From the IMG/VR virus record IMGVR_UViG_3300030339_000025: 12,443 bases of DNA, one strand, 5' to 3'. This stretch comes from a virus. Position 1 is the stretch's first letter; each line of letters opens with the position of its first letter. The position numbers were made by a program, and so were the translations under genes. Shown here piece by piece: positions 1,932-10,089 of this stretch. Under the pieces are notes generated by a model. It was given only the letters and a program-made list of their open reading frames with translations. It did no database searches and was not told the origin of the DNA.

Positions 1932-3989
1932 ATGAAAATAACACAAGGAGTTTTAAAATATTGCAAAATTTATAATGTTACATTTGAAGATAAGTATTCC
2001 AATATAAAAACTATAAAATCAATTGAAAATTTCGATTCAAAATTTTCAAGTAATTCAGGTACGTCTCAAACTTCTACTGTTTTATCCAATAATAATAGTT
2101 ATTATAACGTAGTTGAAGAGAGCAATATAAATAATGGTCGAATATTATATAATTGTGATGTTGAAAATGGCAGATTTTTAAATTCTACATTCTTATCATT
2201 AAATAATGCTAATCATATTACTGATGGATATTTTAGTGGCTGCACTTTTTCTGGTTATACTATCAATGGCGGGCAATTTTTTGATTGTACAATACATTCT
2301 GGATGTACTTGGAATAATGGACAATGGAACGATGGAACTTTCAATGTTAGTTGGACTGGTGGAGTTTGGAATAAAGGAATTTTTCCATTTTTAATTTGGC
2401 CCGCTGGTATTTTTAATGGCGGTATTTTTAAATTTCCATCTGTATGGATTACAGGCGTTGCAAATGGCGGAATTTTTAGTGGAATAACTTGGAATCATGG
2501 TTTAGTTCGTAATGGAGATTTTCTTGATTGCACATTTATGAGTGGTTCTTTTAATAATGGAAATTTTAGTGATGGAACATTTATTGGTGGTATTTTTAAT
2601 AATGGAAAAATGGATAATTCAGTTATTAGCGGAGGTATTTTTAATGATGGTACAATTTCAAATTGTACAGTTAGTGGCAATACAGAAATTAATGGTGGTG
2701 ATTTTTCAGATACAATTATAAATGATGGTAAAATTGTTAATATGAATGGTACAAATTTAATTGTAAATTATGGCAAGTTCTATAATGGCACTTATGATAC
2801 TATACAATTTATAACTGGAGATATATATAATGGTTTATATTTGAATTCATCTGGTATTACATCAGGTTTAACAATACATAATGGTACATTTAAGAAGAGT
2901 GCATTTTGGCTAACTAATATACATAATGGAAATTTTACAAATTGTTATTCAGAAAATGTAAAATGGGATTATGGTATTTATACTGAAGGCTCAATGATGT
3001 TTAATCTTCCTGGGAGTTATTGGAATGATGGCTATTGGAATGATGGCATATTTACTGCGATTGATCCTATAGTTAGTATTCTTTCAAATGTGCAATCAAT
3101 TGATGCAATTACTACTACAACAACTGCTGCACCAACAACTACAACTACAACTACGATAGCACCACATTATATTGGTGAAAAAGTCAGTACAAATGGCGTG
3201 ATTTATGGCACTATTTTTTATCTATATTCTGGAGGTAAAAGCGGATTAATTTCTGCTAATGTAGATACCGCCACGATTACAGATCCAGATAGTTTTTGGG
3301 CTAGTGGCTCTGGTGGATATCAAAGCACAGGAGGACGCGGCACATCAATAGGAACTGGGCAAGCAAATAGTACTGCTATGCTAGCACAGCCTAAAACTAA
3401 TGGGCATGTAATAAAATATTGTCATGACTTATCATTAGGTGGATTCACTGATTGGTTTCTTGGTTCAAAATATGAGGTATTAGCACAATATTCAAATAGA
3501 TCACTTATTGGCGGTTTTTCTAATAACGGATATTGGTCAAGTACAGAATCTAATTATGATCATAGTATTGCTATTAACTTTGGAAATGGAGTTGCAGATA
3601 CGTGGTTAAAACATGATCATTTTTATGTTCGTGCAATTCGCTTTTTTGATGATACAATTGGAACATATACAAATGTTATAATTGATAATACTTCAAACGA
3701 TATAATAATAAACGATGTACAAATTGGCAATTCTTCTATTTTTGGTGTTATTTTTCCTATATCTACTGGTTCACATTACGTAGGAACTACTACATTAAAT
3801 TCTGAACTAACTACATTGATGATAAATTTTTCTAATATAACAGATAATAATCAAAGTATAAGTGTAAATATTAACTCTGTAAATTATTGTTATAATATGC
3901 CACATTCACCTATAATATCAATTCCTATAAATTTTATTAAAGGTCAAAATATTAATATAAGTGCTATTAATGCTAATTGTGTGTTTTAA
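1932..3989 (+). CDS. Large repeat-rich putative surface, fibre or adhesin protein. The N-terminal ~350 aa are roughly 7-residue Gly/aromatic repeats (NGGIF, NDGTF, SGxF) suggesting a beta-solenoid. Then comes an oligo-Thr linker (TTTTTAAPTTTTTTTIAP), then a DUF1566/Fib_succ_major (Lcl C-terminal)-like domain, then an Ile/Asn-rich C-terminal domain.
   Basis: 685 aa. The DUF1566-like signatures are GGFTDWFLGSKYEVLAQY (W.LP..EL..L-like) and GYWSSTE...AINFGNG......YVRAIRFF (yWSST....vRcVR-like). The Thr run is encoded by the ACN-rich tract at about 3107-3165. Confidence 0.75.
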   Translation: MKITQGVLKYCKIYNVTFEDKYSNIKTIKSIENFDSKFSSNSGTSQTSTVLSNNNSYYNVVEESNINNGRILYNCDVENGRFLNSTFLSLNNANHITDGYFSGCTFSGYTINGGQFFDCTIHSGCTWNNGQWNDGTFNVSWTGGVWNKGIFPFLIWPAGIFNGGIFKFPSVWITGVANGGIFSGITWNHGLVRNGDFLDCTFMSGSFNNGNFSDGTFIGGIFNNGKMDNSVISGGIFNDGTISNCTVSGNTEINGGDFSDTIINDGKIVNMNGTNLIVNYGKFYNGTYDTIQFITGDIYNGLYLNSSGITSGLTIHNGTFKKSAFWLTNIHNGNFTNCYSENVKWDYGIYTEGSMMFNLPGSYWNDGYWNDGIFTAIDPIVSILSNVQSIDAITTTTTAAPTTTTTTTIAPHYIGEKVSTNGVIYGTIFYLYSGGKSGLISANVDTATITDPDSFWASGSGGYQSTGGRGTSIGTGQANSTAMLAQPKTNGHVIKYCHDLSLGGFTDWFLGSKYEVLAQYSNRSLIGGFSNNGYWSSTESNYDHSIAINFGNGVADTWLKHDHFYVRAIRFFDDTIGTYTNVIIDNTSNDIIINDVQIGNSSIFGVIFPISTGSHYVGTTTLNSELTTLMINFSNITDNNQSISVNINSVNYCYNMPHSPIISIPINFIKGQNINISAINANCVF

Positions 3990-5802: not shown

Positions 5803-6273
5803 ATGTCAGAAGAAGTTAATTGGAATATAATGGGTGATAATAGAGAAATAAGAGTATTTACAATACCTGTTGGTAATTTAGATCGTAAAGAATCTGAAAA
5901 ACTAATTCAAGAAATAATGAACAAATATAAAGAATATTCATATGGTGATTATTGGCCTTCAATTAAAGAAGAAAATATTGTAGACAATCATTTTGGAAAT
6001 GATGGAAAAGATTTGGATGCAGATTATCATTATATAACTAAAGAAGAAATTTGGAATGAATTAACTGATGGCGAAAAAAAAGAAAGACAATTATCTAAAG
6101 AAGAGCAAGATGAAATTTTCAAAAAAACTGGATTTGTTGATTGGAATCAATATGATTTAGATTATCTTGTTGAATATTTAGAAAATAAATGGAAATATAA
6201 TAGTTCTGGTGAGGCTCTTGCAATATTCAAATTGATTGATTTTTATAAAACACATATAGAAAAATATAAATGA
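5803..6273 (+). CDS. Strongly acidic hypothetical protein (156 aa, many Asp/Glu plus aromatic residues)
   Basis: The start is 5 nt after the upstream stop. The composition is rich in E, D, Y and W: EEQDEIF, DLDADYHY, DWNQYDLDYLVEYLE. Confidence 0.55.
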   Translation: MSEEVNWNIMGDNREIRVFTIPVGNLDRKESEKLIQEIMNKYKEYSYGDYWPSIKEENIVDNHFGNDGKDLDADYHYITKEEIWNELTDGEKKERQLSKEEQDEIFKKTGFVDWNQYDLDYLVEYLENKWKYNSSGEALAIFKLIDFYKTHIEKYK

Positions 6274-6368: not shown

Positions 6369-6659
6369 TTAGTGAATTAATTTTTCTAATTTTATCTTTC
6401 TTATAAATCTAATTCTTTTTTCTTTATCATATGCTATTTCTTGCAGCATTGATGATGTCATATCTGGTATTGTGCATTTTCTTTTATATTTACCACGATT
6501 TATTCTTTCAATAAATTCACAATTTATTAACATATTAATATAATTATCTATTGTTGACCCTCCTTTATCAATAATTTTCCTTTCAATTATTTCATTAGAA
6601 TTTATATAATTTCTAATTATTTCCCATTTGCTTATATTTTCAGGATAATTTATTTTCAT
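6369..6659 (-). CDS. 96-aa ORF in the same frame as the upstream homing-endonuclease fragment and separated from it by a single TAG codon. Either a C-extein remnant, a C-terminal extension of the homing endonuclease, or an independent small basic protein.
   Basis: 7139 and 6659 are in the same frame (480 nt apart). The sequence reads ...FITAN TAG ATA ATG AAA..., and the basic stretch GKYKRKCTIP follows. Confidence 0.4.
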   Translation of the reverse strand: MKINYPENISKWEIIRNYINSNEIIERKIIDKGGSTIDNYINMLINCEFIERINRGKYKRKCTIPDMTSSMLQEIAYDKEKRIRFIRKIKLEKLIH

Positions 6660-6662
6660 TAT

Positions 6663-7690
6663 CTAATTTGCAGTTATAAACATTTTTCCGTTTCTTCTAG
6701 CAATCCAAGTATTATATTTCTCCATTATTGGTGACCACATTACACCATCATAATATCCTTTTTGTATAATTGAATCTTTTGAATTTCTTAATAGTTTATG
6801 TGTTGATTCTGTTAATTGTGTATAATTAGCATAATTTTTAGAGAATATTCTATCTGCTGTATATCCAGCTAAAATACTTAATATTTGAGTTCTATCGTGA
6901 AAATCTTCATATTTTCCTCTTATAGCAAAAGATTTTGATGACCTTATACTACCATCACCATCTATAATTCCTTCTATTATTTTTTTTAATGTTTTTAAAT
7001 TTAAATTAAACATATTAAAATTAATTTTTTTATCTGGAATCAATTTTAAGAAAATATCTTTATATTTACTTCCAATTCTTATATCAATAACATCACAAAT
7101 TTGAATATCAGTATAATCATAAATATCAATTTTTTTCACAGATACTAGAGTGTCTTTATTTTTTTTTTATCACCATTATATCTATAGTATCGTTTTCTTT
7201 TACTATAAGTATATCCAATTTTTAAATTATTTAAACTATTTAAAATTTTATCAACAACATCATCATTCTTTGTATAATTTTGAGTAATTCCAATTCCATA
7301 TTTAACAATGTGACCATCTGTTATAATAATGCCTAACAAATATGCTAAATTTTCATCTATATTTTCAAAATTAGCAGTTCTTTTACAAGATGTTAAAATT
7401 TTATCATATTGTTTTAAATTTTCTGACTCACATATTTTTATTTTTCCATTATAATCTTCTATAACCATTTTATGACTTGGTGTTGAGATCATTGAAATTC
7501 TTCTACTATCAATAAATATAATAGGTCCATTATAATTATCTATTTTTATATTTTTTATTTTATCCCAAATTAAAAAATTTTCAATTATATCGTAAGATAA
7601 TACAAAATCGCCAATTATTAGTTCATTAAATTTTTTCCAACCATTTATAGTTAAACATTCAGTGTCTATATCTACGTAACTATTTTCCAC
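6663..7690 (-). pseudogene. Intein-like Hint domain with an embedded double-motif LAGLIDADG homing endonuclease. Split into two ORFs (7145-7690 and 6663-7139) in different frames. It ends with the intein-type terminal Asn immediately followed by TAG.
   Basis: Block A is CLTINGWKKFNELIIGDFVLSYD. Block B is ISTPSHKMVI (TxxH). LAGLIDADG motif 1 is LAYLLGIIITDGHI, in the first ORF. LAGLIDADG motif 2 is IIEGIIDGDGSI, in the second ORF. A block F/G-like C-terminus YYDG...NTWIARRNGKMFITAN is followed by a stop. The first ORF has no ATG (it begins with GTG), with an in-frame TGA at 7694-7696 only 11 codons upstream of the Cys. A T10 run lies at about 7158-7167, next to the frame break. Confidence 0.7.
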
Positions 7691-8510
7691 TATTCAATAA
7701 TTTTTCTTGTTTTCTTCTCTTTCGCTCTTGGTAAGTTATACCCTTGATAACATGTTTATCAATCTCTTTTTGATATTTCTCTAAATAATCATTTGAATTT
7801 TCCAATCTATTTTTAGCCATATCAAGATAATTGGCTGAAATATCAATACCGACATAATTGCAACCAAAAATTTTGCAACACACTGGAACAGTGCCTGACC
7901 CGCAATAAGGATCCAAAACAATTTTATCTTTATCATCATCAAATATAGAATATATAATTCTTGTTGGTATATCTAAAGAAAAAGGCGCTGGATGTGGATT
8001 ATTATTTTCTGGCATTATATCCCAAATAGCCATCATATTTGCATGTTTTGGAAGTAATTCCTTGCCTATTTTAGAATGATTTGGCTTATATAGCCAGTAT
8101 ATCCGTTCATCTGCTTGCCAGAACCTCCAACCTCTTAAATTACCTGTTATTTTTCTATTCCAAACAATTTCTTGTTTAATCATCCATTGTGTTTTATGAA
8201 GCCAAAGTATTGGATGAATCATATTTCCATTTACCCATCGACATTTATGATTATAAAAAAAAGATCCACCTGGTTTTATAGTTCTATATATTTCGTTTAG
8301 AACCTTTATTTGATTTTCTTGATAGATATCTTCTGGTATATTATCATCATAAGTATCATATTCAACTTTTTTAATTAGTGCGCCACTATTATTCTTCTTA
8401 TTATATACTGGACTCGTAATTCCAAGATCAAAATAATCAGAATCAATTTTTTGTAAAGTTTGTAGTGTATCACCTAATATTAATTCGTTTATTGGCCTCA
8501 TAAAATTCAT
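7680..8510 (-). CDS. DNA methyltransferase, beta-class N4-cytosine/N6-adenine type. The motif IV-like SPVY precedes motif I.
   Basis: 276 aa. DLGITSPVYN is a (D/S)PP(Y/F)-like motif IV near the N-terminus. VLDPYCGSGTVPVCCKIFGCNYVGIDIS is the FxGxG AdoMet motif I near the C-terminus. This order defines the beta permutation (PF01555-like). Confidence 0.85.
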   Translation of the reverse strand: MNFMRPINELILGDTLQTLQKIDSDYFDLGITSPVYNKKNNSGALIKKVEYDTYDDNIPEDIYQENQIKVLNEIYRTIKPGGSFFYNHKCRWVNGNMIHPILWLHKTQWMIKQEIVWNRKITGNLRGWRFWQADERIYWLYKPNHSKIGKELLPKHANMMAIWDIMPENNNPHPAPFSLDIPTRIIYSIFDDDKDKIVLDPYCGSGTVPVCCKIFGCNYVGIDISANYLDMAKNRLENSNDYLEKYQKEIDKHVIKGITYQERKRRKQEKLLNSGK

Positions 8511-8922: not shown

Positions 8923-10089
8923 TTATGGACAGCCAAAATATATAGTTGAATTTATTGTAATTATAGAAAATATATCTGGATCAGGTAAAATAAGTGATGT
9001 TCCAATAACAGTATAAAAATTATCAGAATCGTCTACTACTCTAGATGTAGTTATATATGATTGAGAACCACTAAAAGGACCAGCGCAATATGTATTATGT
9101 GTAATACAATTTTGTAATATATACCAATATAATTGTAATGTTGTAGTTGTAGTTGTAGGCACGACAGTTGTAGTTGTAGTAGGAACAATAGTTGTTGTGG
9201 TTGTTGGTGCCGCAGTTGTTGTAGTTATTGGTGTCGCAGTGGTTGTAGTTGTTGGTGCCGCAGTGGTTGTAGTTGTTGTAGGCGGTATAGTTGTAGTTGT
9301 AGTTGTAGTTGGAATAACTGTTGTAGTTGTAGTTGTAGTTGTTGTTCCAGTAATTAAATAAAAATCGTAAATTGTATTTTTTGTAATATCAATAGTAATA
9401 CCTGTAGGTGTATATCCATTTGCACTACAATTTACTATAAATGATCCAGGTGGAACAGCAAGTGAGTAATATCCATTTTCATTAGTATTACTATATACAC
9501 CAAGCGAATTTATAGTAATAGTTGCATTTGATATTGTTGCCCCAGTTATCGTATAAACTTCACCTTCAATAATTTCAAAAGTTCCTATATTACATTGATA
9601 ATATACTACACCATCTGAAATATCATTGAAATAATTTCCACTTCTACAGGACATTTTACTTAAATATTGATTTTTTAATAACATTCCTGGTGTAATATCA
9701 TTAAAATATCTATTTATAACTATTTCATTTCTATAATTATTTGTATATAAAATCTTATATCCAGTATAAAAATTTGAAAAAGCTATCGCAGGATTACTTA
9801 AATCAAATGTTCCAGAATTTATTATTGGTTCAGTATAAGTAATATAAACTATATCACCGATGGTGAAATTATTTTCAATTTCAGTATATAATTTTATGTA
9901 ACCTTTATAATTAGAGTATGTTTCTAAAATTTTAACAGCATTTCTAATATTTATATAACTATTGGTTTTTAAATTTATTTGACTTTGGATCAACGGCATG
10001 TTGCCACTTAATGAACTTGATACATTTGATGATTTTGCATTTGTTGCAATAGCTATAGGCTTTTTATTTTGAATAATTAAACGTGGCAT
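8923..10089 (-). CDS. Putative surface or fibre protein. The N-terminal region has a carboxypeptidase-regulatory-like (Cna-B-like) beta-sandwich segment. Then comes a long oligo-Thr linker, (T5-9 [AAP/IPP/IVP/VVP]) repeated 8 times. Then a small Cys-containing C-terminal domain.
   Basis: 388 aa. NGYYSLAVPPGSFIVNCSANGYTPTGITIDITKNTIYDFYL resembles CarboxypepD_reg. The linker is TTTTTTTTTVIPTTTTTTTIPPTTTTTTAAPTTTTTATPITTTTAAPTTTTTIVPTTTTTVVPTTTTTT. The C-terminus contains C..H..YC. Confidence 0.75.
   Translation of the reverse strand: MPRLIIQNKKPIAIATNAKSSNVSSSLSGNMPLIQSQINLKTNSYINIRNAVKILETYSNYKGYIKLYTEIENNFTIGDIVYITYTEPIINSGTFDLSNPAIAFSNFYTGYKILYTNNYRNEIVINRYFNDITPGMLLKNQYLSKMSCRSGNYFNDISDGVVYYQCNIGTFEIIEGEVYTITGATISNATITINSLGVYSNTNENGYYSLAVPPGSFIVNCSANGYTPTGITIDITKNTIYDFYLITGTTTTTTTTTVIPTTTTTTTIPPTTTTTTAAPTTTTTATPITTTTAAPTTTTTIVPTTTTTVVPTTTTTTLQLYWYILQNCITHNTYCAGPFSGSQSYITTSRVVDDSDNFYTVIGTSLILPDPDIFSIITINSTIYFGCP
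9127..9352. repeat. Tandem hexanucleotide-type coding repeat, (GTTGTA/GTTGTG)n on the + strand, encoding the oligo-Thr linker. It is similar in inverse orientation to the ACN tract at about 3107-3165.
   Basis: Visible tgtagttgtagttgtagg... periodicity in the sequence. Confidence 0.7.

Follow-up and report, generated by a model that had tools for sequence, protein, structure and literature searches.

A probable free-standing homing endonuclease of intein origin beside a phage DNA methylase gene, with intact and frameshifted alleles

Clear intermediates are rarely seen between inteins, intron-encoded endonucleases and free-standing endonucleases, although these are believed to change into one another. 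The free-standing endonuclease genes known from phages mainly encode GIY-YIG, HNH or plain LAGLIDADG enzymes without a Hint domain. In yeast, WHO genes are situated downstream of FBA1, the gene that they target and the 3' end of which is replaced during homing; frameshifted WHO copies are common (Coughlan et al. 2020, eLife, PMC7282813; Osborne et al. 2026, bioRxiv 10.64898/2026.08.13.744650). In phages, an intein in an actinophage methylase is known (PMC9957025), nuclease genes are found at recombination boundaries (PMC10448857), and, as cited in PMC3229294, a free-standing cyanophage endonuclease targets the insertion site of a psbA intron (Zeng, Bonocora and Shub 2009, ref. 14 therein) and fractured genes carry split inteins with a free-standing endonuclease between the halves (Dassa et al. 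2009, ref. 13 therein). Here we describe a locus in a 12,443-nucleotide (nt) stretch of viral DNA, IMG/VR record IMGVR_UViG_3300030339_000025 (hereafter the window, to which all coordinates refer unless a contig is named), which probably carries a phage gene for a free-standing LAGLIDADG homing endonuclease derived from an intein; both on and off alleles of this gene occur. In the searchable literature we found no description of an extein-less, intein-derived endonuclease from a phage or a bacterium; the only described cases were yeast HO and WHO. Relatives are labelled L for assemblies or contigs and P for proteins.

The locus consists of four successive minus-strand frames, a DNA methylase gene followed by three open reading frames (ORF1, ORF2 and ORF3; Table 1). 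Adding one A to a homopolymer in the window fuses ORF1 and ORF2 into a single protein of 342 amino acids (aa), which is the element considered here. Only the first 4 of its codons precede intein position 1, the terminal Asn is its last residue, and it lies outside any host protein. The 3' end of the methylase gene overlaps the endonuclease start by 11 nt. At the other end, the Asn codon AAT (6668-6666), TAG (6665-6663), ATA and the ATG of ORF3 follow one another in a single frame. A sequence-only reading of this DNA, made before the present analysis, had listed the same three ORFs with an in-frame TGA ahead of ORF1, and had pointed to the TAG right after the terminal Asn and the in-frame 96-aa ORF behind it; all of these were found again, the TGA at 7696-7694. 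We propose that the endonuclease would be translated as a separate protein, probably by coupling to termination of methylase translation, and would fold like PI-SceI or HO, with a Hint domain whose role is confined to structure or DNA binding. In a co-infected cell, the enzyme would cut element-free phages within their methylase gene or close to it, and double-strand-break repair would copy the gene and its flanks across, with the methylase gene and ORF3 as homology arms. Such a mode would amount to homing without splicing, as for the T4 seg and mob genes and the yeast WHO elements.

The intein origin of the element is seen most clearly in its full-length homology. A phmmer search against 1.8 billion representatives returned 2434 matches, and the counts per alignment column given below refer to about 140 aligned embedded relatives. 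Full-length alignments among the best 150 of the 2434 matches run from query residue 5 or 6 to 341 and lie inside much longer proteins. The closest relatives, at 48-51% identity, are genuine methylase inteins. P0007 (51% identity, E = 5.8e-90) and P0002, P0003 and P0004 (32-48% identity, E = 3.6e-80, 1.8e-76 and 1.2e-34) are N6/N4 methylases with a homologous intein, which in all four is inserted at HPA↓CVD...ITGN↓S/T-FPE (arrows mark the boundaries of the insertion). Pfam profiles, a check that the sequence-only reading had proposed, gave only a weak signal by themselves: LAGLIDADG_3 matched residues 113-173 just above its cut-off (24.2 vs 22.5 bits) and Intein_splicing reached 15 bits, under its 35.8-bit cut-off, and it was the full-length homology that decided the matter. 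An AlphaFold2 (AF2) model of the intact element, built from a six-sequence alignment, has a predicted local distance difference test score (pLDDT) of 88.8 and a predicted template modelling score (pTM) of 0.85. Its top Foldseek matches are the LAGLIDADG inteins TliVMA (7qsu, E = 1.4e-15), PI-PfuI (1dq3) and PI-SceI (1vde), with E values of 1e-15 to 1e-9, and Hint-only structures (hedgehog, BIL) and LAGLIDADG-only structures (I-DmoI, I-SceI) match the two parts of the model separately. The motifs LLGIIITDG and IIDGDG, the retained acidic residues and the matches to I-DmoI and I-SceI place the nuclease part in the LAGLIDADG class. By descent and by its predicted fold, the element is an intein in which Hint blocks A, B, F and G flank a two-motif LAGLIDADG domain. 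The sequence-only reading had likewise recognized all of these blocks in order, but the residue that it took for Cys1 is not the first residue of the intein.

In the relatives, the intein starts with C-V-D-x-x-T-E-C-L-T directly past HPA, which fits a canonical block A. The corresponding stretch of the window reads S-Y-V-D-I-D-T-E-C-L-T, in which position 1 is Tyr5 of the ORF (TAC, 7678-7676), preceded by the leader V-E-N-S only. The Cys of CLTINGW, previously taken as Cys1, thus lies seven residues downstream of the true position 1, and the 11 codons thought to precede the intein come down to 4. This Cys is an internal block-A residue, which is Cys in 70 of 143 relatives and Ala, Ile or Val in most of the others. 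Position 1 itself is Cys in all 106 aligned relatives; when N-termini were compared by an offset method, it was Cys in 167 of 170, and the only other Tyr belonged to P0011, the protein of a second lineage (L007) that is described below. At the C-terminal end, 144 of 146 relatives have Thr, Ser or Cys at +1 and none ends at the Asn; the element has its TAG stop codon at +1. The residues that are kept include T70, H73, D125, D245, W318 and N341. The second acidic LAGLIDADG residue is Asp in 137 of 139 relatives and in the window, and the second motif, LKKIIEGIIDGDG, aligns to FLEGYFIGDGDV of PI-PkoII. The element has lost the nucleophile and two near-invariant splicing-block positions and has kept the nuclease and fold positions (Table 1). 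Because it has no exteins, a Tyr at position 1 and a stop codon at +1, protein splicing is predicted to be absent.

Table 1. Features of the locus and of the A-run alleles in the window lineage (arrows, boundaries of intein insertion; counts refer to the aligned relatives)
Feature	Position	Strand	Remarks
Methylase gene, beta-class N6/N4 DNA methyltransferase, 276 aa	8510-7680	-	Pfam PF01555 and PHROG 67
Methylase HPAPFS codons, HPA↓P boundary at 7986/7985	7977..7994	-	Equivalent of the HPA↓S/T-FPE site; uninterrupted, +1 Pro
Hypervariable methylase patch (16 codons)	7833..7904	-	Just past motif I; candidate cleavage or arms-race region, lead only
Endonuclease gene, extein-less, intein-derived LAGLIDADG	6663..7690	-	A10 allele, split into ORF1 and ORF2
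ORF1, 181 aa	7690-7145	-	GTG start
ORF2, 158 aa	7139-6663	-	Ends with the TAG after the terminal Asn
ORF3, 96 aa	6659-6369	-	Own ATG; conserved gene
5' junction copy	7676..7706	-	Methylase TAG 7682-7680, GTG 7690-7688, leader V-E-N-S, Tyr TAC 7678-7676
Block A YVDIDTECLTINGWKK	7631..7678	-	Position 1 Tyr where relatives have Cys
Block B S-T-P-S-H	7472..7486	-	T 137/143, H 143/143; both kept
First LAGLIDADG motif LAYLLGIIITDG	7313..7348	-	E/D 136/142; catalytic Asp kept
Polymorphic A-run (T10 on + strand)	7159-7168	-	A10 frameshifted; A8 and A11 in frame
Second LAGLIDADG motif LKKIIEGIIDGDG	6951..6989	-	G-D-G columns 133-137 of 139-140; catalytic Asp kept
Block F GVMWSP	6729..6746	-	W 140/140, kept; C of W-C-P 139/140, Ser here
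Block G ARRNGKMFITAN	6666..6701	-	Penultimate G 135/135, Ala here; terminal N 133/133, kept
3' junction copy GCAAATTAGATAATGAAAATAAATTAT	6645..6671	-	Overlaps Asn codon, supplies TAG, ORF3 ATG and first five codons MKINY
A8 allele			Six assemblies (L001, L002/L018, L003, L020, L023, L024); intact, 341 aa
A10 allele			Seven assemblies (window, L008, L016, L017, L021, L022, L025); split, 181 + 158 aa
A11 allele			One assembly (L019); intact, 342 aa

Both flanking genes are whole, and both occur without the element. The methylase matches nearly the entire Pfam profile PF01555 (E = 9.3e-26, profile positions 2-220 of 221) and PHROG 67 (E = 8e-35); motif IV (SPVY), HPAPFS and motif I (DPYCGSGT) are all present. 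When it is aligned to the exteins of P0002 and P0004, joined as after splicing, the identity is 21-38% and its own HPA↓P falls exactly at their insertion point. ORF3 has homologs of 81% and 72% identity that lie beside a methylase gene without the element, and it is next to the methylase gene in three lineages. In L015, the methylase gene (275 aa) is directly followed by the ORF3 homolog with a 20-nt overlap, which constitutes an empty site, and a gene for a 280-aa plain LAGLIDADG protein lies directly upstream of the methylase gene (L015 110-952, plus strand). In L011, the slot between methylase and ORF3 is filled by a 392-aa GIY-YIG gene on the opposite strand (24.5 vs a 22.6-bit cut-off; L011 1726-2904, minus strand). 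By eye, the protein encoded by this gene contains several similar segments of about 45 aa, and the gene has a duplicated junction of its own. Different free-standing endonuclease genes thus ring the methylase gene in different relatives, and the element is one of them. It is an ORF of its own between conserved genes, in a slot that is empty or otherwise occupied in relatives, as is the case for free-standing phage endonuclease genes. The arrangement of a fractured gene with a split intein was not found, in that the methylase is a single ORF and both Hint halves reside in the endonuclease ORF.

Several ways of tying the flanking genes to the element as exteins were considered and rejected. ORF3 as a degenerate C-extein of the methylase had been suggested by a likeness seen by eye (YPENISKWEII resembling FPESLAEDHIL, with a collinear NYI..IN.E[FY]), but BLASTP gave E = 0.12 against the C-extein of P0002 and E = 9.1 against the window methylase, ORF3 has no PF01555 match, and its homologs stand alone as genes. 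The methylase as an N-extein joined through a frameshift is contradicted by its completeness and by its end, which overlaps ORF3 at the empty site. Judged from these sequence comparisons, ORF3 is a conserved gene in its own right and does not derive from a C-extein or from the methylase gene. A winged-helix protein is its possible product; the supporting matches are sub-threshold only (Pfam WH_DRP, E = 0.024; NCBIfam MecI, E = 0.06), and its AF2 model shows a low-confidence helix-helix-hairpin-helix pattern with a pLDDT of 55.8, which is too poor for a fold search. NCBIfam held no family for either the endonuclease or ORF3.

The sequence-only reading had offered three explanations, and comparison with homologous loci, which it had suggested, distinguishes among them: L015 and L011 lack the element and their flanks are two separate genes, with no split host gene. 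A decaying intein whose host extein was lost does not fit, as no host gene is missing, the methylase being complete and ORF3 existing without the element. A free-standing, HO-like endonuclease fits the lack of exteins, the element's own start codon, the slot that is empty or holds another endonuclease in relatives, and the purifying selection described below. The third, a mini-extein gene of 11 + 96 aa, is refuted by the Tyr at position 1, the stop codon at +1 and an ORF3 that has its own ATG and stands alone in L015 and L011; what survives of this suggestion is that the short leader really is a duplicated copy of the first codons of ORF3. The same evidence bears on the wider idea of an element that acts at the protein level, either as a mini-extein precursor that splices or cleaves or as an HO-like fusion, by read-through of the TAG, to a C-terminal DNA-binding domain. 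The endonuclease and ORF3 share one frame with only TAG-ATA between them, the leader copies the ORF3 N-terminus, and ORF3 has its faint winged-helix similarity. However, position 1 and the stop codon at +1 speak against splicing, read-through would give Ile-Met with no nucleophile, and ORF3 is found alone with its own ATG; TAG is moreover an ordinary stop codon in this genome, which ends the methylase gene and does not occur in frame in the long ORFs. We therefore regard a protein-level element as highly improbable. An alternative genetic code with TGA or TAG as sense was also rejected, as translation with table 11 leaves the long ORFs uninterrupted and the methylase gene itself ends in TAG.

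The junctions record how the element could have acquired its start and stop codons. The empty site in L015 reads CAAGAAAAATTAAAAAATGAAAATAAATTATCCTGA, which is the methylase end with the ATG of ORF3 inside it. In an alignment of the junctions of the window, L007, L011 and L015, 21-25 bp from the start region of ORF3 are duplicated around the insert, and L015 has a single copy of them; in the window and in L007, the stretch AAATTA...ATGA...AAAT..TAT both precedes and follows the insert. The duplication is also visible at the protein level, where the leaders M-I-K-N-D-S-Y (L007) and V-E-N-S-Y (window) can be compared with the start of ORF3, M-K-I-N-Y. In L011, AAATTAGATAATGAAAATAAATTAT occurs upstream of and within ORF3 without the element. 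Because AAATTAGATAATG is likewise present upstream of ORF3 in the element-free L011, the TAG after the terminal Asn is flanking sequence rather than a mutated +1 codon. Since the methylase gene and ORF3 overlap, an insertion can spare both genes only if it duplicates the overlap. These features suggest that the element arose by illegitimate, microhomology-assisted recombination, and the Tyr at position 1 could be either a G-to-A change of TGT or the fifth codon of ORF3 itself. The 5' junction lies directly before TAT↓CCTGAA(G), which resembles TTT CCT GAA(G) located 3 nt past the canonical insertion point in L005; on this likeness, the insertion could have been a mis-homing event.

The frame break between ORF1 and ORF2 is polymorphic. 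In 14 assemblies of essentially the same phage, from JGI, the European Nucleotide Archive (ENA) and Logan, the A-run is the sole difference within the element; among these near-identical assemblies, the intact copies have A8 or A11 and the split ones A10. The frame change noticed near this homopolymer by the sequence-only reading is therefore real, but it is no fixed feature of the element, and the run occupies 7159-7168 rather than 7158-7167. P0001 corresponds to the intact 341-aa allele and is 99% identical to the window element. The frame change could also be an artefact of sequencing or assembly, with an intact A8 run as the true window sequence; homopolymers are error-prone, and the A-run is the sole difference from L001 and L003 across the element. 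Against this, A10 recurs in 6 other independent assemblies, A8 was found in 6 and A11 once, and a 2-nt error recurring across assemblers and samples is unlikely. Moreover, A8 and A10 are each present within the JGI and within the Logan sources, which makes a pipeline artefact unlikely. We regard an artefact as quite unlikely.

The window gene is off through a +2 slip in the A8 run that gives A10, and intact A8 and A11 alleles coexist with it in nature. It follows that the locus is in one of two states: degeneration, as a phase of the homing cycle, or reversible toggling at a hypermutable tract. Slippage occurs where nine or more A's follow one another, and the A10 allele could still yield some full-length protein, through slippage during transcription or a -1 shift of the ribosome on A-AAA-AAA. 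At the position of the run, L007 reads S-D-V-K-N-K. The run is thus not conserved, which indicates an accidental slippery tract rather than an ancient programmed site.

The second lineage, L007, was found in another sample and shares 80% nucleotide identity with the window. It shows the same extein-less layout, with the methylase end overlapping an ATG start and with Tyr at position 1. The two elements are collinear over 309 residues with 74% amino-acid identity, the L007 copy is interrupted by one in-frame TAA, and a search with its C-terminal part returned P0001 as the only match. Between the window and L007 lineages, the Nei-Gojobori ratio of nonsynonymous (dN) to synonymous (dS) substitution rates is 0.29 over 308 codons at a dS of 0.53, and the values for the two parts are nearly the same (Hint, 0.29; LAGLIDADG, 0.31). 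A dN/dS of 0.29 indicates that the stand-alone protein has been under selection for most of the divergence time.

These data also bear on the possibility that the element is a non-functional remnant, an intein-derived pseudogene that persists between two genes, for which A10 and the L007 nonsense codon would be ordinary decay. The frameshift in 7 of the 14 assemblies, the in-frame TAA in L007, the lost splicing-block residues and a Pfam Intein_splicing score under its cut-off all agree with such a remnant. It is contradicted by the dN/dS of 0.29 over 308 codons between lineages separated by a dS of 0.53, by an ORF that is intact (341 or 342 aa) in 7 assemblies in a sequence of 22% GC where stop codons arise easily, by the retention of both catalytic Asp and the fold-defining residues, and by the A11 allele, which restores the frame; the disabling mutations are, furthermore, single and recent. 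A remnant is accordingly unlikely, although it is the rival to which we give most weight. Decay, which the sequence-only reading had also raised, is real in some alleles (the A10 frameshift and the L007 TAA), but it is not the decay of an intein that lost its extein. The two disabling mutations, A10 and the L007 TAA, are single and recent, which is the pattern expected late in a homing cycle (for the framework of late-cycle degeneration, see PMC3229294).

The cut proposed above would fall in or near the methylase gene. Just past motif I, the methylase gene contains a hypervariable patch with a nucleotide identity between lineages of 53-65%, compared with 78-97% in most other stretches. The proportion of nonsynonymous differences (pN) in the patch is 0.15-0.45 vs 0.06-0.11 upstream, an increase of about 2-7 fold. 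Positive selection was considered for the patch and is not demonstrated, as pN is raised but dN/dS is just 0.3-0.5 with dS saturated. Assembly L022 is a mosaic, with 47 differences from the window between 8021 and 7833 and complete identity from 7832 through the element. The boundary of the mosaic lies 143 bp upstream of the endonuclease start and abuts the patch, and it fits both co-conversion from a nearby break and ordinary phage mosaicism. At the canonical insertion point, the window reads HPAPFS, and L011, L015 and the mosaic L022 read HPAPFP, a difference of one C-to-T change located 7 nt past that point; the change could confer resistance or be neutral. A role of FS in self-immunity has to be set against L022, which carries the element together with FP, but the L022 copy is the broken A10 allele. 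We consider three candidate targets. One is the HPA↓xFP site at 7986/7985, which precedes the endonuclease start codon by 296 bp; the others are the patch at 7904-7833 and the empty methylase/ORF3 junction.

A more far-reaching proposal builds on these candidates. The locus could be the phage counterpart of yeast WHO, that is, a third class of homing element, neither intron nor intein, which would cut competitor methylase genes at HPA↓xFP or within 7904-7833, with repair dragging the endonuclease gene and the methylase 3' end across and with the A-run as a reversible switch that limits self-damage. We put this forward tentatively and hold it to be possible but rather doubtful. If true, the transition from intein to free-standing gene would have occurred independently in viruses of prokaryotes, and the duplication would record the acquisition of the start and stop codons.

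Several observations weigh against a free-standing, mobile endonuclease. The L022 mosaic boundary excludes the canonical HPA site, which argues against simple co-conversion from a cut there. The element is present in all 14 window-lineage assemblies, and its absence is seen only in relatives with a divergence of 15-18%. That the Hint part is under equally strong purifying selection is hard to explain if splicing is dead. Half of the window-lineage assemblies are frameshifted and L007 carries its TAA at about codon 90, and the endonuclease gene may be on its way to a pseudogene. A direct reading of the sequence upstream of the endonuclease GTG revealed no Shine-Dalgarno motif. A promoter and terminator scan gave 35 promoter-like sites vs 24.4 +/- 4.5 expected and 0 terminators, and is uninformative because the DNA is 26% GC. 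The proposed homing and its target are suggested by anatomy and by analogy with known systems. A rival reading is domestication, in which the protein was recruited for a phage function (DNA binding or regulation, a nuclease against the host or competitor phages, or a partner of the methylase) and is no longer mobile. Purifying selection across the whole protein, Hint half included, and the fixation of the element in all window-lineage assemblies, always beside the methylase gene, would then be expected, and HO and WhiA provide precedents (PMC7282813). On the other hand, one would not expect half of the assemblies to have lost a useful gene, nor L007 to carry a nonsense codon in it, and a slot that is empty in L015 or filled by an unrelated GIY-YIG gene in L011 is the usual signature of a selfish endonuclease. 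We judge domestication to be very unlikely, and a free-standing homing endonuclease of intein origin continues to be the probable explanation.

Further relatives of the element were sought in several collections. Megablast of the whole window against phages gave no match. Tblastn against phages gave four weak matches, annotated as DNA polymerase, portal protein and hypothetical protein (two Synechococcus phages), and a Synechococcus phage ORF of about 504 aa, noted as T4-like gp55, was read as holding an embedded intein. A scan of IMG/VR for further relatives found none, a metagenome scan yielded L008 alone as a close relative, and GTDB genomes contained distant archaeal inteins only. Among the best 150 of the 2434 phmmer matches, no extein-less form was found beyond the L007 fragment; P0111 and P0141 retain short exteins. 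P0111 (376 aa) is a related intein with 28 aa of a methylase N-terminus and 17 aa past the Asn remaining, and P0141 (380 aa) is one with little extein and with the terminal Asn lost; these two proteins, from other metagenomes, may represent independent stages of host-gene decay. P0006 (542 aa) contains a 28% identical intein inside a papain-like peptidase (PF00112) rather than a methylase, so the intein family occupies several host genes.

The remainder of the window has a phage-like gene content at 26% GC, including a polynucleotide kinase/phosphatase, the DNA methylase, a short T4-portal-like match and an IS200/IS605 TnpA/TnpB pair. This pair lies inside the phage-like genome, with TnpA (Y1 transposase) at 81-500 on the minus strand and TnpB at 585-1829 on the plus strand. 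Contig L002 is near-identical to the window apart from one dense cluster of single-nucleotide polymorphisms and indels at about 540-710, which spans the TnpA/TnpB intergenic region and the 5' end of TnpB. The 156-aa ORF at 5803-6273 (plus strand) has a short, weak match (residues 15-45) to T4 portal gp20 in both Pfam and PHROGs and is much too short for a portal protein. Two large proteins, encoded at 8923-10089 (minus strand) and 1932-3989 (plus strand), contain long poly-Thr/Pro linker runs, and the linker length is variable because the 388-aa protein measures 386 aa in another assembly.

The interest of the locus is that it captures a transition from intein to free-standing gene in a phage, where the closest relatives are still inteins in the family of the adjacent gene. 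An empty site and an alternative occupant are both available for comparison, the duplication shows how start and stop codons were acquired, and near-invariant splicing-block positions have drifted while nuclease residues were held. The element could serve as a natural test of the role of the Hint domain without splicing, as a source of a compact new LAGLIDADG specificity and as an example of a homopolymer on/off switch in a selfish phage gene.

Compared with known systems, the element belongs to the same family as the methylase LAGLIDADG inteins (P0002-P0005, P0007 and P0090) and PI-SceI, PI-PfuI and TliVMA, with 32-51% identity over the full length and the same block order, predicted fold and catalytic residues. 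Canonical inteins are embedded, with Cys1, a +1 nucleophile, the block-F Cys and the penultimate Gly, whereas the element has none of these; it also has its own start codon, taken from a neighbouring gene. Fractured genes resemble the locus in that an endonuclease is expressed separately at an intein-bearing locus. There, however, the host gene is split and the intein halves trans-splice, while here the methylase gene is whole and the Hint halves are fused to the endonuclease. Like free-standing phage endonucleases such as T4 seg and mob, the element is an ORF wedged between conserved genes, with patchy presence, alternative families in the slot and a recombination boundary nearby, and it differs from them in its complete intein scaffold, which is predicted to be splicing-dead.

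The closest parallel is with yeast HO and WHO, which are likewise intein-derived Hint and LAGLIDADG proteins without exteins; HO and WHO do not splice and are expressed independently, as is predicted for the element. As with WHO, the gene lies directly downstream of a conserved host gene and not inside it, and the frameshifted pseudogene copies common in WHO have their equivalent in the A10 allele. The chimeric evolution of the WHO host gene may have its counterpart here in the L022 mosaic and the hypervariable patch in the 3' part of the methylase gene. The differences are equally clear. HO and WHO have a C-terminal zinc finger, whereas the element ends at the Asn and has no CxxC repeats; they lack motif G, whereas the element retains block G, with ARRNGKMFITAN fully aligned. 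WHO loci carry a duplicated 3' fragment of the host gene downstream, whereas BLASTP and Pfam found no methylase fragment downstream of the element. WHO acts in yeast, in meiosis, and any homing of the phage element would occur during co-infection. Finally, the nearest relatives of the element are methylase inteins and not VMA1, which points to an independent origin.

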